This document shows, one piece after another, positions 46,514-52,878 of a stretch of 64,000 nt of DNA. The position numbers and the translations under genes were made by a program. The DNA is taken from assembly GCA_016285345.1 (NCBI GenBank), contig JAEEQN010000004.1, forward strand, positions 29,339 to 93,338, read 5' to 3'. The notes under the pieces were generated by a model, which saw only the letters and a program-made list of their open reading frames with translations, had not been told where the DNA came from and did no database searches. The stretch is from Victivallales bacterium (lineage in GTDB: Bacteria; Verrucomicrobiota; Lentisphaeria; Victivallales; UBA1829). How positions within the stretch are numbered: the first letter of the stretch is position 1; every line of letters starts with the position of its first letter.

Positions 46514-47807
46514 ACCGGAACAATCGTCCGGCGCGTTCGCCGGGGAACGCCCCTGGACCGTCACCGAACTGAACGACGCGGTCCGCACGATCCTTGAAGG
46601 CTCGTTCCGTCCGTTCTGGCTGACCGGCGAGGTCGGCTCGTACAACCCGTACCGCTCGGGGCATGTTTATCTCACGTTGAAGGACGCGGCGTCGCAGGTG
46701 CGCGCGGTTTTTTTCAGCGGGTCGGAAGTGTGCCGCAAGCTCGGACTGAAGGTCGGCGACCAGGTCGAGGTGTTCGGCTCGCTGTCGCTCTACACGCAGC
46801 GCGGCGACTTCCAGTTCTACATCAAAAAACTCCAGCTGTGCGGGGTAGGGGACCTGCACCGCCAGTTCGCGCTTCTGAAGGAAAAATTAGCGGAGGAAGG
46901 GCTTTTCGACCCCGAACACAAGAAACCCGTCCCGTTCCTGCCGAAGCGCATCGGCGTCATCAGTTCGCCCATGGGCGCCGCCGTGAAGGACTTCATGAAG
47001 ATCGCCCTCGCGCGATTCCCGAACCTCGAAATCCGCCTGTGTCCCGCCCCCGTGCAGGGCAAGGGCGCGGCGGAGAAACTTGCGCGCGCGGTCCGGTTCT
47101 TCAACCGGGCGGGCGGCGTGGACGTGATCGTGCTGACCCGCGGCGGCGGCTCGATGGAGGACCTGTGGCCGTTCAACGAAGAGGTGCTGGCGCGTGCGAT
47201 CTACGCTTCGAAGATACCCGTGGTGAGCGCGGTCGGACATGAGATCGACTTCACCATTTCGGATTTCGTCGCCGACATGCGCGCGCCGACGCCGAGCGGG
47301 GCGGCGGAACAGCTGATCCCGGAGAAACGCGTGCTGCTCGACTCGCTGGACGACCTGAAAGTGAGGATGAACACGGCAGCCGCGTACGCCGTGGAACGGT
47401 CCGCCGGACGCCTCGCGCACGTGATGGGCTCGAAGGTGTTCCGCGACTCCATGCGTCTGGCGCTGGAACGCATGCAGCGCGTGGACATGCTCATGCAGAG
47501 CGCGTCCGCTGCGCTTCTGCGCCGTGCCGACGCCGCCACGCATCGCCTGGAACGCGTCCGCGCCGAGTTCGATGCCTACGATCCGTTCAGGATTCTGAAG
47601 CGCGGCTACGTCTATCTGGCGGAACCCGGCACGGGGCGTCAGATCACGGGCGTCGGCGGGCTTCGGGCGGGACAGCACGTGCGCGCGATTCTGGCGGACG
47701 GCGCGGCGGATCTGGATGTCCGGAGCGTCCGCGAGGCCGAGGCCGCTCAGAACGGCCGCCGGGACCTGTTGCCGCTGATCACGGCGGAGCCGGAGGCAAC
47801 CAATTAA
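46503..47807 (+). CDS. xseA: exodeoxyribonuclease VII large subunit
   Basis: SGHVYLTLKD, VQGKGA, RGGGSMEDLWPFNEE, SAVGHEIDFT, APTPS. Confidence 0.95.
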   Translation: MWGEPEQSSGAFAGERPWTVTELNDAVRTILEGSFRPFWLTGEVGSYNPYRSGHVYLTLKDAASQVRAVFFSGSEVCRKLGLKVGDQVEVFGSLSLYTQRGDFQFYIKKLQLCGVGDLHRQFALLKEKLAEEGLFDPEHKKPVPFLPKRIGVISSPMGAAVKDFMKIALARFPNLEIRLCPAPVQGKGAAEKLARAVRFFNRAGGVDVIVLTRGGGSMEDLWPFNEEVLARAIYASKIPVVSAVGHEIDFTISDFVADMRAPTPSGAAEQLIPEKRVLLDSLDDLKVRMNTAAAYAVERSAGRLAHVMGSKVFRDSMRLALERMQRVDMLMQSASAALLRRADAATHRLERVRAEFDAYDPFRILKRGYVYLAEPGTGRQITGVGGLRAGQHVRAILADGAADLDVRSVREAEAAQNGRRDLLPLITAEPEATN

Positions 47808-47833
47808 ATGAACCAACGGGAAAGGAGCGTCCC

Positions 47834-48754
47834 ATGAACTTTTCTTTCAGAATGAAACCGGTTGTGCTGATGATTGCCGCGGCCGCGGCGTTGAGTTTTG
47901 TTGCCGCGCTGGATCTTTCCGGCGCGCAGGTGTCGAAGGCGGATGCCGGGGCGGAAAAGAACCTGATCCATGTGGCGACCTACAACGTGCGCGGACCGAG
48001 CGACCGTGCGCCGAACGCGTGGCGGGACCGTCTGCCGCGCATGGTGAAGACCATCCGCGACAACAGATTCGAGCTGATCGGCACGCAGGAAACGCTTTCC
48101 GGACCGATCAAGGACCTCGCCGCTTCGCTCGAGTTCAATTATTTCGGCATCGGGCGCGACAAGCACAAGGGTGACGAGCACAACGTCGTTTTCTACGATC
48201 CCGCGCGCTTCGACGTGATCTCGCAGGAGACGTTCTGGCTCTCCGACAACCCCGGAACCCCCGGTTCCTCCAGCTGGGATTCCGGGTGTCCGCGCATCTG
48301 CACGTGGGGGCTTCTGCTGGACCGCCGGACCAATCAGCGCTTCGTCATCGCGAACACGCACCTCGACAACCGGAGCGCGGTGGCGCGGATTCAGGGGATC
48401 AACGTGCTCCTCACGCGCCTCGCGCCCATGATCGAGAAATACCCGTTCATCCTCACCGGCGACTTCAATTCCACCGCCGACGACATGCCCGTGCGGCGTG
48501 TGCTCGGCGTACTGCGGAACGCCCGCGACGTGTCCGAGACCGACCACTATGGCGCGGGCGACGAGACGTTCCACGATTTTCACGAGAACCGCAGGGAGCG
48601 CACTCACCGGAAGCCGATCGACTTCATCTTCGTGAACAATCGCGTGCGCGTGCTTTCCCACGGCACGATCAACGATTTCCGCAACGGCCTCGCGTCGTCC
48701 GACCATTTCCCCGTTACCGCCGAGATCGTCCTCCTCGACGAACCGGAGAAGTAA
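47834..48754 (+). CDS. exported endonuclease/exonuclease/phosphatase family protein
   Basis: Signal peptide; TYNVR, GTQE, TFWLS, NTHLD, GDFN, IDFIF, SDHFPV. Confidence 0.9.
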   Translation: MNFSFRMKPVVLMIAAAAALSFVAALDLSGAQVSKADAGAEKNLIHVATYNVRGPSDRAPNAWRDRLPRMVKTIRDNRFELIGTQETLSGPIKDLAASLEFNYFGIGRDKHKGDEHNVVFYDPARFDVISQETFWLSDNPGTPGSSSWDSGCPRICTWGLLLDRRTNQRFVIANTHLDNRSAVARIQGINVLLTRLAPMIEKYPFILTGDFNSTADDMPVRRVLGVLRNARDVSETDHYGAGDETFHDFHENRRERTHRKPIDFIFVNNRVRVLSHGTINDFRNGLASSDHFPVTAEIVLLDEPEK

Positions 48755-48887
48755 AGCGGCGTCTTGCTTTTGCCTGAGGGTGTGTCTCCTGATAGCTGCT
48801 CCGGACAAGGTATGTACCTTCGAATAGTCTTATACACCTAGATGATATGTCTTATATGTCATATAGGACATATTTCTTTCCTCAATT

Positions 48888-49230
48888 AACCTAAGCCGTT
48901 CGCGTCTCTGCGGTGAGGGAAATCTACCTTACTGAAAAAGAAGAGGGAGGAACCATTTACTCCCCCCCCAAAAAAGGTTTTTGCCGTTCGCATTTCTACG
49001 GTGAGGTAAATCAGCCCTGTTCGCCCCATTTTTAACCTCAGCCGTTTGCGCCTCCGCGGTGAGGTGAATCCACCTCGACAATCTAAAAAACTTAGCCGTT
49101 CGCGTCTCAGCAGTGAGGTGAATCCACCTCATTCTTCTAAAAACTCAGCCGTTCGCGTCTCAGCGGTCAGAGAAGAATCAGTACCGCAATCTAAACTCTT
49201 CTGCTATTCGCGTCTCGCGGTCAAGTAATC
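48888..49230 (+). repeat. array of six degenerate direct repeats (core GCCGTTCGCGTCTCNGCGGTSAGG...AATC)
   Basis: Core copies start at 48895, 48983, 49041, 49095, 49148, 49203 (periods 88, 58, 54, 53, 55). Confidence 0.9.
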
Positions 49231-49345
49231 CTGTTGCCGAGTGTGAGCGAGGCTACCACGGCGGCGAAGCCGCCCCCAGCAACGCGGGGACGCAACGCGT
49301 CCTTTCCCCCCTTTCCGAAATGTGGAAAAAAAGCATAAAAAACGT

Positions 49346-49373
49346 TTGATTTTTCTCGGACTGAATGTACATT
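49346..49373 (+). promoter_or_regulatory. sigma70-like promoter of the SEL1 gene
   Basis: TTGATT-N16-TACATT; GGAGG RBS before 49437. Confidence 0.45.
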
Positions 49374-49436
49374 GTGCTTTAGAAATAATAGTCCGTCTGT
49401 TTTGTATTCTTGACTATGATAAACGGAGGAATCAAG

Positions 49437-49988
49437 ATGAGAGAACATGATTTTCGGGATTTGAAGGCAAAGGCCGTGGAACAGTTGTTTCAGGTCGGCA
49501 AATGCTATGAAACTGGCGATGGCGTCGACAAGGATGAGGTGGAAGCCGTCAGGTGGTACCGTATGGCGGCGGAGCAGGGTTCCGCCGATGCGATGTTCGA
49601 ACTCAGCAAGTGCTATACATTCGGCATTGGTGTGAGGCGGAACCGCGCAACGGCGTTCAAATGGCTGAGCAAGGCCGCGGAACGCGGTCATTCGAAGGCG
49701 ATGGTCCAGCTTGGCAAGAGGTGTACACACGAATACGAAGCAGATTATAATCCGCGCAAAGCCGTCAGATTGTTCCGCACGGCGGCGGAAAAAGGGGATG
49801 CGTGGGGCATGTTTCACCTCGGAGAGTGCTACGCGGACGGCATCGGTGTGAAGAAAGATTATGACGCGGCGTATTTATGGTTCTGCCGTGCCGCGCTTGC
49901 CGCCCCTGACGACGAAATGCTGTATCAATCCGTCCAAAACAAAATCTATGACCCGAACCTGAAAGAAATTCTGGGAAAGAAAAAATAG
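49437..49988 (+). CDS. SEL1-like repeat protein
   Basis: About four repeats such as G.CYETGDGVDKDEVEAVRWYRMAAEQG, LGECYADGIGVKKD; no signal peptide. Confidence 0.9.
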   Translation: MREHDFRDLKAKAVEQLFQVGKCYETGDGVDKDEVEAVRWYRMAAEQGSADAMFELSKCYTFGIGVRRNRATAFKWLSKAAERGHSKAMVQLGKRCTHEYEADYNPRKAVRLFRTAAEKGDAWGMFHLGECYADGIGVKKDYDAAYLWFCRAALAAPDDEMLYQSVQNKIYDPNLKEILGKKK

Positions 49989-50006
49989 GCTAAATCATTC
50001 TGTTTG

Positions 50007-50125
50007 CCGCTTCGCTGGGGGCGCACATCCGCGCGCCTCGGTGAACTCGTTTGCTCGAGTTCGACAGATTACTTGAACGCAGAGACGCGAACGGCGAGAG
50101 GTTATTATTATCGCGAACGGCAAAC
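50007..50125 (-). repeat. inverted copy of the array unit plus extended structured arm
   Basis: Minus strand AACCTCTCGCCGTTCGCGTCTCTGCGTTCAAGTAATC (50103-50067); second partial copy GCCGTTCGCG near 50112-50121. Confidence 0.8.
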
Positions 50126-50181
50126 GTTTTGATGGTTGCGGTGAAAGAGAGGTGGGGGGGCCATTAAAAATTTCTCGTGGG

Positions 50182-50286
50182 TCAGGATTTTTTCGGGCGC
50201 TTGATGCTGGAACGGGAGGGGGCTCGGTGCGGGAATCAGGATTTTTTCGGGCGCTTGATGCTGGAACGGGAGGGGGGCTCGGTGCG
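50182..50286. repeat. tandem duplication of the last ~50 bp of hrpB
   Basis: 50182-50231 and 50236-50286 are identical except for G5 versus G6. Confidence 0.9.
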
Positions 50287-52878
50287 CGGGTCCTCGGGCC
50301 AGTTGTGCTTGGGGTAACGGCCGCGCATGTCTTTCCGCACGAGGAAATACGAGCCGTCCCAGAATTCGTCCAGGTTGCGCGTGATCTGCACGGTGCGCAT
50401 GGCGGGCGAAAGCAGGTCGAACACGAGCGGGACGCGTCCGCCGGCGATCTTCGGCGAATGCGCGAGTCCGAAGACCTCCTGAAGCTTCACTCGCACCATG
50501 GGGGCGGCGGGGTCGGAATAGTCGATGGCGATGTGCGAGCCGCTCGGGACCTCGAAGCGTTCGGGCGCGAGCGAGTTCAGCGTGGACTGGGCTTTCGGCG
50601 GGAGCATGGCGGCGAAGATCGAACGGTAATCCAGGTCCGCGAGCTTGTCAAGGCGGCTGACGCCGCCGAGGTGCGGCGCGAGCCAGTCTTCGAGCGTGTC
50701 CAGCAGGTGCTGTTCCGAGCAGTCGGGGAAGCCCTCGCAGCCGTGCACGTGCAGGAACTGGATGCGCCGGAGAAATTTGAGCTGAGCGTGGGTGATGCCG
50801 AGCGAGGCGAACCCGCGTTTGCGGACGGCGGCGATCAGAAGGACCGCGGTGTCGTCGCCGGGGCGCAGATTGGACAGCTTGCGTTCAATCGTGAGCGAAC
50901 CGACCGCCTTCACGTTGAACACGCGGACGCACAGCGCATCGTCGTCCCAGACCGTTTCGCGGCGCGTGCGGAAGAGGTCCGGCAGGGCGGCTTCGAGCTC
51001 GGCGATGTCGAGCGGGAGCGCGAGGCGGATCGTGGGCTGTCCGGAGAGTCCGCCGGAATCCGCCACGGCGAGGTATTCCGAATCGCGGAGCGGGTCGCGT
51101 GCGCCGAGCTTCGCGGTCATGCCGTTGGAGAGCTGGTATTCGGGGCGGTCGCCGCCGGTGCGACGTCGCGCGATACGGTCGGGGTATGCCGCGGCAAGGA
51201 CAAGTCCTTGACTGATATTGTGCCGGGCTTCGCTTCCGGCACGGGGAGGCGGGGCCTCCACTGCGGTTGTGCCGGGCTTCGCTCCGGCACGGGAGGACAA
51301 GTCCTCCACTGCGGCAGTGCCCGGCTTCGCTCGGGCACGGGAGGACAAGTCCTCCACTGCGGCGGTGCCGGGCTTCGCTCCGGCACGAGGAAGGGCGGCT
51401 TCGAGTTGGGAAACGGCCTGTCGGATACGGGAAAGCGTCTGACGGTCCGCAGGCAGGGCGGACGCCTTGTCGAGCACGGCGAGGCGTTCTGCGAGGTCGG
51501 CGGTCTGCGGATTGACGAGCGGATCGCGGTCGGACAGGATTGCGGCAATCTGAAGCGCCTCCCGGCGGAGTCCGTGCTCGTCGGCGAAGAGAATGGCGTT
51601 CGCGAGGCGCGGATGCACGGGCAGACGGTGCAGGAGCTTGCCGTGCGGCGTGATCTGCCCGGTCTTTGCCGAGATCGCGCCGAGTTCGGTCAGCAGGTCG
51701 AACGCGTAGTCGAGCTTGACCTCGGGCGGCGTCGTCATCCAGGGCAGGGCGGCGGCCTTTTCGCGGACCACGCCCCAATGCGCCAGCTCCAGCGCGAGCT
51801 CGGTGAGGTCGGCATGTTCGATCTCCGGCGGGGCGAAATCCGGCATGGCGTTCTGTTCGTATTCGTGCCAGAGACGGATGCAGACGCCCGGCGCGGTGCG
51901 TCCGGCGCGCCCCCGGCGCTGTTCGGCGGACGCCTTCGATATCTTGACCGTGCGGAGCTGGTCCATGCCGGACGCGGGGGAGAAGAACGGCATGCGCGCG
52001 AGGCCGGAGTCGACGACGATGCGGATGCCGGGGATGGTGATGCTGGTCTCGGCGACGGGCGTGGCGAGGATGATGCGGCGGCGGTCCGACGGCGCGAACA
52101 CGCGGTCCTGTTCGGCGGCGGAGAGCGAGCCGTAGAGCGGGAGGACCTCGAAATCGTGGCGCATGGAGGCGAGTTCGGCGGCGGTGCGGCGGATTTCCGC
52201 CTCGCCGGGGAGAAAAACGAGCGCGTCGCCTTCGTGTTCGCGCATGGCGTCCAGCACGACCGAGGCGGCGTGCGGTTCGACGGGAGCACCGGGCTTCAGG
52301 GGCGCGTAGCTCACGCCGACCTCGAAACAGCGTCCCGAGGCGTTGACGATCTCGGTATCGTTTCCGAGCAACCCGGCGGCGGAATCCGCATCGAGCGTGG
52401 CGGACATGAGCGCGATGCGGAGGTCGTCGCGGAGGACGGAGCGCGCGTCAAGCGTGAGTGCGAGCGCGAGATCGGCGTGAATGCTGCGTTCGTGGAATTC
52501 GTCGAAAATGACGGCGGAGACGCCTTCCAGCGACGGGTCGCGCTGGAGCATGCGCGTGAGCAGCGCCTCGGTCACGACCTCGATGCGCGTGTCCGCCGAA
52601 ACGAGCGTCTCGAAGCGCGTCCGGTAGCCCACGGTCTTCCCCGGCGGTTCGTTCAGGAGCGACGCCATGCGCCGTGCCGCGGCGCGCGCGGCGATGCGGC
52701 GGGGTTCCAGCATGACGATCTTCCCCTCGGGCAGCACGCCCGGTTCGAGCAGGGCGAGCGGCACGACAGTGCTTTTGCCCGCGCCGGGTTCCGCCGTGAT
52801 GACCAGCGGACGGCAGGCGCGCGCGGCGTCCGCGATCCGCGGCAGGACGGCGTCGACGGGGAGACCGGAGCGGATCAT
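50236..52878 (-). CDS. hrpB: ATP-dependent RNA helicase HrpB
   Basis: AEPGAGKST, LEPRRIAAR, DEFHERS, MSATL, AETSITIPG, QRRGRAGR, AYPDRIA, GRYPKHNWP. Confidence 0.95.
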   Translation of the reverse strand: MIRSGLPVDAVLPRIADAARACRPLVITAEPGAGKSTVVPLALLEPGVLPEGKIVMLEPRRIAARAAARRMASLLNEPPGKTVGYRTRFETLVSADTRIEVVTEALLTRMLQRDPSLEGVSAVIFDEFHERSIHADLALALTLDARSVLRDDLRIALMSATLDADSAAGLLGNDTEIVNASGRCFEVGVSYAPLKPGAPVEPHAASVVLDAMREHEGDALVFLPGEAEIRRTAAELASMRHDFEVLPLYGSLSAAEQDRVFAPSDRRRIILATPVAETSITIPGIRIVVDSGLARMPFFSPASGMDQLRTVKISKASAEQRRGRAGRTAPGVCIRLWHEYEQNAMPDFAPPEIEHADLTELALELAHWGVVREKAAALPWMTTPPEVKLDYAFDLLTELGAISAKTGQITPHGKLLHRLPVHPRLANAILFADEHGLRREALQIAAILSDRDPLVNPQTADLAERLAVLDKASALPADRQTLSRIRQAVSQLEAALPRAGAKPGTAAVEDLSSRARAKPGTAAVEDLSSRAGAKPGTTAVEAPPPRAGSEARHNISQGLVLAAAYPDRIARRRTGGDRPEYQLSNGMTAKLGARDPLRDSEYLAVADSGGLSGQPTIRLALPLDIAELEAALPDLFRTRRETVWDDDALCVRVFNVKAVGSLTIERKLSNLRPGDDTAVLLIAAVRKRGFASLGITHAQLKFLRRIQFLHVHGCEGFPDCSEQHLLDTLEDWLAPHLGGVSRLDKLADLDYRSIFAAMLPPKAQSTLNSLAPERFEVPSGSHIAIDYSDPAAPMVRVKLQEVFGLAHSPKIAGGRVPLVFDLLSPAMRTVQITRNLDEFWDGSYFLVRKDMRGRYPKHNWPEDPRTEPPSRSSIKRPKKS
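51194..51386 (+). repeat. four tandem copies (48-bp period) of the three-hairpin element inside hrpB
   Basis: Units at 51194-51242, 51243-51290, 51291-51338, 51339-51386; translated as RAGAKPGTAAVEDLSS-type 16-aa repeats. Confidence 0.92.

Follow-up and report, generated by a model that had tools for sequence, protein, structure and literature searches.

The window (the whole 64,000-nucleotide stretch of Victivallales DNA that was analysed) contains a Sel1-repeat protein gene in the interval between two core genes, one for an EEP (endonuclease/exonuclease/phosphatase-like) protein and the other, hrpB, for a helicase; the EEP gene has an orthologue in 14 of the 15 other genomes of the genus. 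An earlier note on this DNA described a SEL1 gene cassette bracketed by inward-facing, structured inverted arms at 49193..50103, and re-analysis confirmed this observation (Table 1). The enclosed gene is AT-richer than its neighbours, as the note had it: the Sel1 ORF has a GC content of 0.536 (GC3 of 0.64), compared to 0.62 and 0.69 for the flanking genes (GC3 of 0.84 for EEP and 0.85 for hrpB), and in the comparison of cargo with flanks across cassettes the window figures are 0.51 vs. 0.62 and 0.69. Again in line with the note, there is no transposase or recombinase among the ORFs between the two arms.

Table 1. Features of the EEP-hrpB interval, with positions counted from the first nucleotide of the window.
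Feature	Position	Strand	Evidence or remark
EEP (endonuclease/exonuclease/phosphatase-like), left flanking core gene	47834..48754	+	ORF; reads toward cassette
AT-rich stretch, left end of inserted DNA	48756..48887	.	Missing from the empty sites of relatives; GC profile
Five tandem head-only mini-units, outside left arm	48888..49200	+	Head and short hairpin, period ~54 nt
Left, promoter-side arm	49202..49287	+	R1 91.2 bits, E = 1e-18; P2 hairpin type GAGC-GNRA-GCGA
GGACGC-N3-GCGTCC hairpin, then TTT	49288..49307	+	Conserved appendix of arm
Inferred cassette promoter, TTGATT (49346-49351), 16 nt, TACATT (49368-49373)	49346..49373	+	Alignment of cassette 5' ends
Sel1-repeat protein gene, 183 aa, sole cargo here	49437..49988	+	Pfam PF08238, E = 8.9e-38, 4 repeats
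Right, distal arm, inverted	50007..50096	-	R1 87.7 bits, E = 7e-18; P2 type GAACTCG...CGAGTTC
Partial head unit outside right arm	50112..50130	-	Inverted-repeat pairs I5, I6, I9, I13
54-bp tandem duplicate of hrpB 3' end	50182..50235	-	Repeat D4, TRF, empty-site comparison; between the true end of the gene and the cassette
hrpB (ATP-dependent helicase), right flanking core gene	50236..52878	-	ORF, tblastn synteny; reads toward cassette

In the repeat analysis of the window, the five head-only units outside the left arm span 48888-49175. The same head-only arrangement occurs in the relative G047, together with comparable duplicates of the ends of both flanking genes. Over positions 47800-51200, neither a joint nor an inversion nor a cassette passed over was seen in contigs from four DNA runs, which, as short unitigs broken at the arms, speak neither for nor against such events.

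Each arm is a unit of 86-90 nt with three hairpins, one of them in the head. Given a plain MAFFT alignment of 22 stretches with arms, RNAalifold recovered only the 4-bp hairpin of the head, and the structure was therefore set by hand for R1, a covariance model built from 13 arm copies of this genome. R1 recovers both bracketing arms at E-values of about 1e-18, which is more than chance would give, and these are the only two units in the window that continue with TCAAGTAATC, the others being head-only. Aligned with MAFFT, the two window arms are identical at 55 of 86 positions (64%), with strong agreement over the head (17/21) and the 3' strand (11/13) that drops to 8/19 and 6/13 in the two hairpins, both of which remain self-complementary in each arm. 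Across the arm alignment, 81.1% of cells are paired vs. 75.3% in shuffles, and double changes are seen at 13 of 19 pairs; the hairpins covary, which bears out the claim that the arms keep their structure while the sequence diverges. For the long-range helix P1, the share of paired cells is only 69%.

The non-Watson-Crick cells of hairpin P2 comprise 110 G-A/A-G and 36 G-U combinations, vs. 12 A-C, a pattern that fits only the strand read inward, toward the cargo. When all helices are pooled, G-U (83) and A-C (76) are balanced, and G-U pairs were rejected as a marker of the functional strand in every helix; the strand signal is confined to P2, and the argument for strand-specific folding is limited to that hairpin. 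In folds of single sequences, left-type arms did not outperform shuffles (z = -0.3 to -1.1), and right-type arms were somewhat better (z = -2.3 and -2.9); the minimum free energy fold of the right window arm is a three-way junction (z = -2.26). The arms are also mosaic, with hairpin types and 3' tails that assort independently, and some heads are fused to a second repeat, ‘module B’.

The core of the left arm runs straight into the hairpin GGGGACGC-AAC-GCGTCC (49288-49304), which the right arm lacks. This hairpin has a predicted energy of -9.6 kcal/mol (z = -1.0) and a poor U-tract, with just three T that give way to a run of C. The hairpin that follows the right arm (-2.8 kcal/mol) folds no better than shuffles and was rejected as a terminator, and a terminator scan called neither of the two. 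Of 93 arms across the family, the GGACGC hairpin is present on 47 and a T-rich tail comes after it on only 33 of those, and for this reason the sequences suggest a terminator or insulator role for the arms only weakly. Rfam covariance models had no match at E ≤ 10 on either strand of positions 48000-51000. Two other classes of repeat were considered and set aside: the head units do not form a CRISPR array, the ‘spacers’ being conserved, A-rich and 18-20 nt long with no cas genes nearby, and the tandem heads do not resemble the repeats of Type III toxin-antitoxin systems, the cargo not being ToxN-like and the repeats flanking many different cargos.

R1 has 24 matches in this genome and 321 in 14 of the 16 genomes of the genus (8-51 per genome), with none in 140 genomes from 56 other genera of the order. 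Based on these genome searches, the arm repeat is confined to one uncultured rumen genus of the Victivallales; no description of it was found in the literature searched for Lentisphaeria/Victivallales repeats, and viral contigs contained no exact match to the right-type core pattern. The earlier note had proposed a search for further arm pairs, and inverted pairs around genes proved to be the rule: among the best 150 of the 321 hits there are 61 pairs of neighbouring copies within 6 kb, with 37 inward, 1 outward and 23 tandem, and this genome alone has 7 pairs that face inward and none that faces outward. Some arms form tandem arrays of up to seven copies (L124), and others are cargo-free (those on C41 and C23 and a doublet on C43). 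A strict head motif occurs within 60 nt outside the arm for 18 of 79 arms, compared to 2 of 79 in a control stretch; a loose head pattern matched 150 times across the genome vs. 63 times in a reversed control and is uninformative in GC-rich DNA. The arms are extragenic and mostly follow gene ends. By a crude rule combining ORFs and GC3, the genes beside cassettes read toward the cassette in 42 of 53 cases; roughly one fifth read away from it, and the arms there still face inward.

The note had also placed a promoter between the arms. This part of its description holds through conservation, the element being homologous to the promoter of other cassettes in an alignment of 5' ends, and not through a simple consensus scan, which did not call it. 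Its -10 box lies 81 nt after the co-oriented arm; the corresponding distance is 85-95 nt in 17 of 17 leader-bearing cassettes. In many cassettes the promoter is followed by a 245-nt leader RNA with strong covariation, which was detected in 66 of 151 genomes of the order and had no match in Rfam. Judged by sequence and covariation, the leader is a well-supported candidate for a new class of regulatory RNA ahead of horizontally acquired operons. ORFs of 75-123 aa at the 5' ends of cassettes were rejected as genes; they overlap the non-coding leader, in whose alignment the indels are not multiples of three.

The cargo was surveyed in 28 cassettes, with 69 cargo ORF translations scanned against Pfam-type families. 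Each cassette holds one to four low-GC genes, all co-oriented with the promoter, and relative to the cargo operon the distal arm is antisense in every case. The GC content of the cargo is 0.37-0.51 in all 27 other cassettes, compared to at least 0.55 in 50 of 53 flanks. The genes encode Sel1 proteins, restriction-modification systems, nucleases, an SspH-like ATPase and many unknown proteins; listing the cargo of other arm pairs, another check that the note had put forward, thus yielded diverse accessory and defence genes. None of the 69 ORFs matched a transposase, integrase or resolvase family, and no autonomous copy occurs among the 28 cassettes. The last cargo gene is often a Sel1 gene of ~185 aa, and a paralogue of the window gene (74% identical; C38:9757-10308) ends 22 nt from an inverted arm. 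The window Sel1 unit is the minimal form of an accessory-gene cassette that occurs throughout the genus.

Nine relatives carry EEP and hrpB on one stretch, and the comparison of this interval across them, likewise suggested by the note, supports a cassette: five sites are empty and arm-free and four are filled with different cargo. A Sel1 gene that is syntenic in relatives without arms, which the note would have counted against a cassette, was found in one relative (G048), where arms are undetectable and degenerate head units occur after the gene only. The inserts of G045 and G044 at this locus also lack arms. The left end of the window insert was set against the empty sites of G043, G046, G040, G042 and G038, and no short direct repeat or target-site duplication was found at the window junctions relative to these five sites; the only junction repeat is the tandem copy of 54 bp from the end of hrpB, present on one side. 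Four different cargo sets were found at one locus (L048, L108, L109, L111, L113) and four at a second (L049, L114, L120, L121), while PD-(D/E)XK plus Sel1 cargo recurs at three loci and FtsK-like plus Sel1 cargo at two. Arms and cargo together are inserted DNA, and the hot spots that receive them lie mostly between convergent core genes. The pairing of arms around genes, the empty sites, the variable cargo and its recurrence at different loci all support the cassette reading.

The breakpoints differ between exchanges at one locus and those between loci. When G000 is compared to G037 or G046, similarity ends at the ends of the flanking genes and not in the arms; such swaps of whole intervals, broken at core-gene ends, are suggestive of homologous recombination. 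Between loci, L113 and L120 share 84.6% identity through cargo, promoter, leader and promoter-side arm, and the similarity stops at the arm head, this being the one clear cassette pair with a junction at that position.

The Y1 transposase family PF01797 has no match in this genome (83% complete) and occurs in only 5 of the 16 genomes of the genus, with just 2 of those matches full length and no R1 hit (E ≤ 0.01) within 1.5 kb of the Y1 genes. A mechanism of the REP/RAYT type, which the layout had brought to mind, is therefore not supported. All six tyrosine recombinase genes in this genome are more than 1.5 kb from the nearest arm, no serine recombinase was found in it, and its four rve-type hits and two DDE_Tnp_1 fragments are all far from any arm, a comparison made on an 83% complete genome, in assemblies of which kind IS copies are often lost. 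No transposase acting on the cassettes in trans was found. The note's idea of a non-autonomous exchange cassette stands insofar as the unit is repeat-bounded, has no mobility gene and varies in cargo; a REP/RAYT-style or transposon mechanism for it finds no support.

The explanation that we favour, with less than even confidence, is a cassette frame common to the genus that turns over by homologous recombination and has the arms as its boundaries. From outside to inside, the frame comprises optional head-only units, an arm that usually carries the GGACGC hairpin, a promoter 81-95 nt further on, often the 245-nt leader RNA, one to four cargo genes and an inverted second arm. Cassettes would be turned over by the homologous recombination of the host, with crossovers in the flanking core genes replacing whole intervals and modules moving between loci by way of common sequence (heads or arms, promoter and leader, Sel1 genes); the head-only units and duplicated core-gene ends could be scars of these events. 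Each arm is predicted to fold on the strand read from outside toward the cargo, and the arms may be RNA-level boundary modules that receive, stop or process transcripts from neighbouring genes. They could insulate tightly controlled cargo and also provide portable homology. We regard this combined role of the arms, as boundary or insulator at the RNA level and as shared homology, as a tentative proposal.

Comparable arrangements are described in Neisseria, where minimal mobile elements consist of alternative small gene sets, including restriction-modification systems, at syntenic sites without mobility genes, and where the NIME (dRS3/RS) are genus-specific intergenic arrays of variable length adjoining variable genes; in the cited account, the arrays are proposed as recombination substrates for incoming DNA, with array growth as a by-product (PMC1797815). 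The cassettes resemble the former in having alternative gene sets at syntenic core-gene sites and no mobility genes, and the latter in their genus-specific intergenic repeats beside variable genes. They differ in that the repeat is a covarying, multi-helix unit of ~90 nt, compared to RS elements flanked by the 20-bp dRS3, and in their strictly inward arms, fixed promoter distance and frequent leader RNA.

Alternatively, the arms could be recombination sites, presented as folded single strands or structured DNA to a host-encoded recombinase, with the head arrays as left-over half sites, which would make the cassettes comparable to those of integrons or to Acinetobacter dif modules; we consider this unlikely, although it accounts for several features. 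Integron cassettes are small and often low in GC, their attC sites conserve the fold while the sequence diverges, and defence genes are among their cargo; attC sites stand in one orientation, one per cassette, beside an intI-attI platform. The cassettes described here likewise are small and low in GC, keep the arm fold more than the sequence and carry defence cargo, but they have inverted site pairs, a promoter of their own in each cassette and no integrase nearby. The dif modules of Acinetobacter are closer in layout, being accessory genes (a Sel1-repeat module among them) between inverse 28-bp XerC/XerD sites, mainly plasmid-borne and in varied contexts, without a recombinase of their own (PMC6449649). 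Inversely oriented sites, the lack of a recombinase and the same cargo in different contexts are common to both systems, but the cassettes have 90-nt folded arms between chromosomal core genes, and their swaps break in the flanking genes.

The recurrence of cargo at different loci, the single junction exactly at an arm head (L113/L120), the enrichment of head-only units outside arms and the inward orientation of arms even beside genes that read away would all fit such sites. Against them stand the tyrosine recombinase genes with no arm nearby, the lack of a serine recombinase, same-locus swaps that break in core-gene ends rather than arms and, by eye only, the failure to recognise in the arms a dif-like 11-6-11 site with an ATAA...TTAT dyad. 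Moreover, the folded strand differs between paired arms, so one single strand could not present both arms folded. A related proposal, also unlikely, is that arms, fixed promoter and leader make up a standard platform on which defence and surface genes dock and are expressed, the arms being recognised by a putative dedicated recombination system, possibly host-encoded, that would act on folded nucleic acid. If true, this would be a third cassette system with its recombinase in trans, beside integrons and dif modules.

It is improbable that the arms are selfish or structural repeats, like REP/BIME or MITE elements, that accumulated in dispensable hot-spot DNA, their link to cassettes being a by-product. 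REPs are short single palindromes of 20-40 nt that number over 100 per genome and flank a RAYT gene. REP/BIME and RAYT systems are described as structured extragenic repeats (PMC2817692), and the arms share with them a structured, extragenic nature, mosaic arrays and a position mostly after gene ends; they differ in that this genome has only 24 copies of a three-helix unit and no RAYT gene, and in that the repeats flank cargo. The genus-specific, multi-copy and mosaic character of the repeats, the fusion of some heads to module B, the arrays of up to seven copies and the cargo-free arms would fit such an origin. However, neither the 37 to 1 inward bias among the best 150 hits nor the constant promoter spacing in all leader-bearing cassettes is expected of passive accumulation, and the empty sites are without arms.

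Another explanation to which we give little credence is that the cassettes are non-autonomous transposons, i.e., mobile insertion cassettes (MICs) moved in trans by a putative transposase, with the arms as terminal inverted repeats and the repeated heads as transposase-binding sites. The several direct subterminal heads on each side are comparable to the ends of Tn7- or Mu-type elements, and the arms arrive together with the cargo. The definition of MICs begins with a bracket of inverted repeats that encloses no transposase and is completed by target-site duplications and by ends that match an IS whose transposase moves them (PMC3913671). Passenger genes between two inverted repeats are thus common to MICs and the cassettes, but neither a target-site duplication nor a matching IS was found for the latter. 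The two window arms, of different subtypes, have an identity of only 64%, compensatory changes in the hairpins are unexpected for sites that a protein binds in double-stranded form, the 28 cassettes include no autonomous one, and the rve, DDE_Tnp_1, recombinase and Y1 genes are all away from arms.

Least probable is a role of the arms as small-RNA genes whose RNAs, transcribed from any locus, would pair with the complement of an arm in the 3' ends of cargo mRNAs, which would acquire it by reading through the inverted distal arm, and so co-regulate or silence all cassettes: the invariably antisense distal arm, the strand-specific folding signal and an AT-rich motif, possibly a promoter, repeated before each arm in the L124 and L116 tandem arrays are consistent with this, but no promoter was called ahead of the window arms and the terminators after arms are weak or missing. 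In a variant of the platform proposal, pairing of arm RNAs with the antisense arm that ends every cassette mRNA would place foreign cassettes under genome-wide control.

Defence genes in E. coli occupy a limited number of hot spots between core genes, with many sites empty in other strains, and ride on prophages, ICEs, satellites and transposons (PMC10121019). The cassettes similarly place variable genes at core-gene hot spots that are empty elsewhere, but all 28 are without genes of such elements and are bounded by structured repeats. While defence genes in model bacteria are mostly found on recognisable mobile elements, here they are found in cassettes with no mobility gene and with a common frame of folded inverted arms, one promoter and often one leader RNA. 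Through this frame, new accessory and defence genes can be traced in these genomes by a simple sequence feature, which is useful given that many of the cargo genes have no match among known families. The frame is also a natural system for asking how cassettes turn over without a recombinase of their own, and the leader RNA is a separate candidate regulatory RNA.

The Sel1-repeat gene of the window lies in an insert of ~1.43 kb, missing from relatives, between two convergent core genes, an endonuclease/exonuclease/phosphatase-like (EEP) gene and the ATP-dependent helicase gene hrpB. An earlier note described an AT-richer SEL1 gene bracketed by inverted, structured arms whose structure is kept as the sequence diverges. 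This is correct, based on comparison of the arms and the GC contrast between insert (0.51) and flanking genes (0.62 and 0.69). Left and right arms are identical at 55 of 86 aligned positions; the similar parts are the head (17/21) and the 3' strand (11/13), while two hairpins have diverged (8/19 and 6/13) and are still hairpins in both arms. Besides complete arms, the insert contains ‘head-only’ units (an arm head plus a short hairpin). Within hrpB there are four tandem 48-bp repeats (51197-51387), which give the helicase a recurring peptide segment (AGAKPGTAAVEDLSSR...).

Components of the window cassette, and positions of leader RNAs and ‘module B’ repeats on other locus stretches (L) and on contigs of the same genome (C)
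Feature	Position	Strand	Remark
EEP-family gene	47834-48754	+	left flank
AT-rich stretch	left end of insert		before head-only units
Five tandem head-only units	48888-49175		period ~54
Left arm	49202-49287	+	GGACGC-AAC-GCGTCC hairpin directly after
Promoter-like region	between left-arm hairpin and Sel1 gene		
Sel1-repeat gene, 183 aa	49437-49988		Pfam E = 9e-38
Right arm, inverted	50007-50096	-	
Partial inverted head	50112-50130		outside right arm
Tandem copy of hrpB 3' end, 54 bp	50182-50235		
hrpB	50236-52878	-	right flank
Leader RNA	L050:1873-2120	+	
Leader RNA	L045:4181-4430	-	
Leader RNA	L049:3448-3691	-	
Leader RNA	C20:34544-34789; C35:60446-60689		own genome
Module B	L053:1850-1915		C20
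Module B	L109		upstream of its right arm
Module B	L115		
Module B	L119		
Module B	L135:1230-1480		

By BLAST, the genome that the window comes from (2.78 Mb, 66 contigs, 83% complete) has about two dozen arm copies of two main subtypes. A covariance model (R1), built from 13 aligned full copies with a structure set by hand (head hairpin, outer helix P1, hairpins P2 and P3), finds 24 copies in this genome (E ≤ 1) and 321 across 14 of 16 genomes of the genus, with 8 to 51 per genome. With stricter filters, a sample of the order gave matches in 9 of 11 other genomes of the genus and in none of 140 genomes from 56 other genera; BLAST agrees on this restriction (12/15 in the genus vs. 0/44 outside). 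When one genome from each of 185,579 species was scanned for an exact pattern, 40 stretches matched, all from records titled rumen MAGs of Lentisphaeria/Victivallales or ‘uncultured bacterium’, except for two very short contigs binned elsewhere. The arms had no match in Rfam or in the viral collection. Full arms also occur in tandem, as many as seven of them ~150 nt apart (L124:3579-4592 in genome G040, L116:1546-1934, L120:1595-2069); in the first two arrays a repeated AT-rich motif (TTGCAAnTAGTTTCA...), possibly a promoter or protein-binding site, stands ahead of each arm. Two hairpins in succession, GTGC...GAGCGnAGC...GCAC and then GGAGG....CCTCC, make up a second repeat family, ‘module B’, which in some cases is joined to an arm head, replacing the usual 5' strand, and is present at one site otherwise free of arms.

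Inverted pairs predominate among neighboring arms. Among 150 listed of the 321 R1 matches there are 61 neighboring pairs (≤6 kb), comprising 37 inward (gaps of 217-4093 nt), 23 tandem and a single outward pair; the window's own genome has 7 inward pairs and no outward pair. The comparison set comprised 27 more cassettes with cargo, plus a doublet that has none. Cargo GC is 0.37-0.51 in 27/27 of these cassettes, flank GC is at least 0.55 in 50 of 53 measurable flanks, and GC3 is ~0.85-0.95 in host genes vs. 0.2-0.65 in cargo genes. A crude rule based on ORFs and GC3 has 42 of 53 neighboring core genes pointing toward the cassette; of its ‘away’ calls at least two are artefactual, since those flanks are the EEP gene. 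The doublet, with 25 nt between inward arms, sits amid two convergent core genes (L055:2036-2205; C43:40535-40704) and represents a landing pad or else a cassette that lost its cargo.

The sites behave as hot spots with turnover of cargo. Of 15 other genomes of the genus, 14 have the EEP gene, 9 of them with hrpB on the same stretch. Five of these nine (G043, G046, G040, G042, G038) have an empty site without an arm, the stop codons lying 13-45 bp apart, and the other four carry inserts: G047 and G039 have arms, a Sel1 gene and further cargo, while the inserts of G045 (3.7 kb) and G044 (1.2 kb) lack R1 matches. G048 has a Sel1 gene (80% identical) where synteny breaks down; no arm accompanies this gene, which is followed only by degenerate heads. 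When the genomes are ranked by EEP identity, filled and empty states are intermixed, which indicates repeated gains, losses or transfers. A second locus (L048, L108, L109, L111, L113) contains a lone Sel1 gene, PD-(D/E)XK + Sel1, or two versions of FtsK-like + Sel1, and is near-empty in G047 (284 bp, no arm); a third (L049, L114, L120, L121) has four unrelated cargo sets. The same cargo also appears across loci, with PD-(D/E)XK + Sel1 at all three and FtsK-like + Sel1 at two. The arms are part of the inserted DNA.

The expectation that arm structure is maintained is borne out by covariation. In 98 arms aligned to R1, a fit that itself favors the structure, 81.1% of cells are paired vs. 75.3% in column shuffles (0/500 shuffles reach the observed value), dropping to 32-53% when partners are slid. 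Changes on both sides occur in 13 of 19 base pairs, and the signal comes from P2 and the inner pair of P3; the head hairpin shows no covariation in these copies, and pairing of P1 is limited to 69% of cells. The two subtypes exchange two Watson-Crick pairs of P2 for tandem G-A/A-G, and non-standard P2 cells comprise 110 G-A/A-G and 36 G-U vs. 12 A-C. Because the G-A/A-G pairs would be pyrimidine clashes on the opposite strand, the fold belongs to the strand that reads inward, toward the cargo; P2 is the one helix that informs this assignment, since G-U (83) and A-C (76) are balanced over all helices together. As judged from these substitutions, the comparison demonstrates a predicted fold on the inward-read strand, as RNA or single-stranded DNA.

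The promoter-side arm is followed by a 5' platform consisting of a GGACGC-N3/4-GCGTCC hairpin, an A-rich stretch and a conserved promoter-like sequence (TTTGATTTTT ... GTGTAAATTGTG). Of 93 arms, 47 carry the hairpin, and in 33 of these a T-rich tail follows it. The -10 box lies 85-95 nt past the co-oriented arm in 17/17 leader-bearing cassettes (81 nt in the window). In cassettes with an assignable promoter or leader, the adjacent cargo genes run in its direction, making each such cassette a small operon; L120 and L122 each have one additional gene on the opposite strand. The upstream arm runs in the direction of the operon and the distal arm opposes it; arms are strictly oriented relative to the cassette, with one arm fixed to the promoter.

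Right behind the promoter begins a 245-nt leader RNA with a T-run at its end, which is absent from the window's own cassette. RNAalifold predicts 54 pairs from 17 genus copies, 21 with compensatory changes. A covariance model of the leader (R2) matches 66 of 151 genomes of the order (18/57 genera, 2/12 families, 1-8 copies per genome), and there was no match to Rfam. In 18 copies from outside the genus, in an alignment fitted to R2, 95.6% of cells are paired vs. 74.7% in shuffles and 32 of 54 pairs are double-changed. The leader precedes low-GC accessory operons with defence-like genes; elsewhere it is followed by glycosyltransferases, adhesins, a NusG paralogue with a polysaccharide gene, radical-SAM and zinc-ribbon proteins, and WYL + Hsp70-like pairs. 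The leader may serve accessory operons, perhaps in antitermination or attenuation.

Cargo was identified by Pfam and PADLOC scans of 69 translations from 28 cassettes. Sel1-repeat proteins occur in 12 of the 28, with a ~185-aa Sel1 gene often directly abutting the distal arm. Other cargo includes PD-(D/E)XK nucleases (PDDEXK_4; PADLOC candidate PDC-S26), an FtsK/SspH-like ATPase with a WYL regulator, an MmeI-type IIG restriction-modification enzyme, a methyltransferase with specificity subunit, HSDR_N nuclease-like proteins, a protein kinase similar to PD-T4-6, TM2 and zinc-ribbon membrane proteins, an Lgt paralogue and an AIDA-like adhesin; many cargo proteins have no family match in either scan. 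The WYL regulator, a 267-aa familyless protein and the FtsK/SspH-like ATPase form a module (L048:2634-5761, L094:3656-5684) that is always followed by a small Sel1 gene and looks like a candidate defence system.

The earlier note saw no transposase or recombinase in the cassette, and none of the 69 translations belongs to a transposase, integrase or resolvase family. In the window's own genome, no arm lies within 1.5 kb of the six tyrosine-recombinase genes, the four rve matches and two DDE fragments are far from arms, and neither a serine recombinase nor a Y1 transposase was found; 5 of 16 genomes of the genus have a Y1 transposase, with no arms adjoining. A dedicated recombinase acting on the folded arms is possible, as is mobilization of the cassettes in trans as transposons.

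Breakpoints of whole-interval swaps point to exchange through flanking homology. At one locus, G000 matches G037 and G046 at 92-98% identity in the core genes up to their ends, and everything between, arms included, differs, the pattern expected of double crossovers in the flanks. Compared with G045, G000 retains ~93% identity in the flanks and left arm, a 3.3-kb three-gene block is present/absent between arm hairpin and Sel1 start, and Sel1 plus right arm fall to 86%. In one clear case an inter-locus junction lies at an arm head: L113 and L120 share 84.6% identity across cargo, leader, promoter and promoter-side arm, ending at that arm's head, with only generic similarity (74%) in the distal arm. 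Hot spots also contain partial tandem duplicates of flanking core-gene 3' ends. The hrpB 3' end occurs twice in the window (54 bp, 50182-50289), the G047 cassette (L093) has the EEP end four times and the hrpB end twice, and the near-empty G047 site (L135:1300-1560) repeats the left gene end. Head-only units lie just outside arms in 18/79 cases vs. 2/79 in a control stretch, and just inside in 9/79, in part as array members. We read duplicated ends and head-only units as scars of repeated, partly illegitimate recombination, as has been proposed for Neisseria repeat arrays (PMC1797815).

Our preferred reading, drawn from sequence comparison, is that the arms would serve as boundary modules for transcripts coming in from beyond the cassette, with the conserved head and 3' strand doubling as shared homology for shuffling. 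Counting against a boundary role, evidence for termination in the arm sequences is weak, and arms still face inward where the neighboring gene reads away. That the arms are selfish repeats is possible, as is an antisense small-RNA circuit.

The likeness to REP arrays flanking RAYT genes proposed earlier is not supported as a mechanism, as the cassettes do not fit the REP/RAYT definition and Y1 transposases are absent or apart from arms; they also fall outside the integron definition. The three closest architectures are Neisseria minimal mobile elements with NIME arrays, whose dRS3 repeats are absent here, Acinetobacter dif modules, whose Xer sites were not recognised in the arms by eye, and mobile insertion cassettes, whose target duplication and cognate IS were not encountered. 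On this basis we class the elements as recombinase-less, repeat-bounded accessory cassettes at hot spots.
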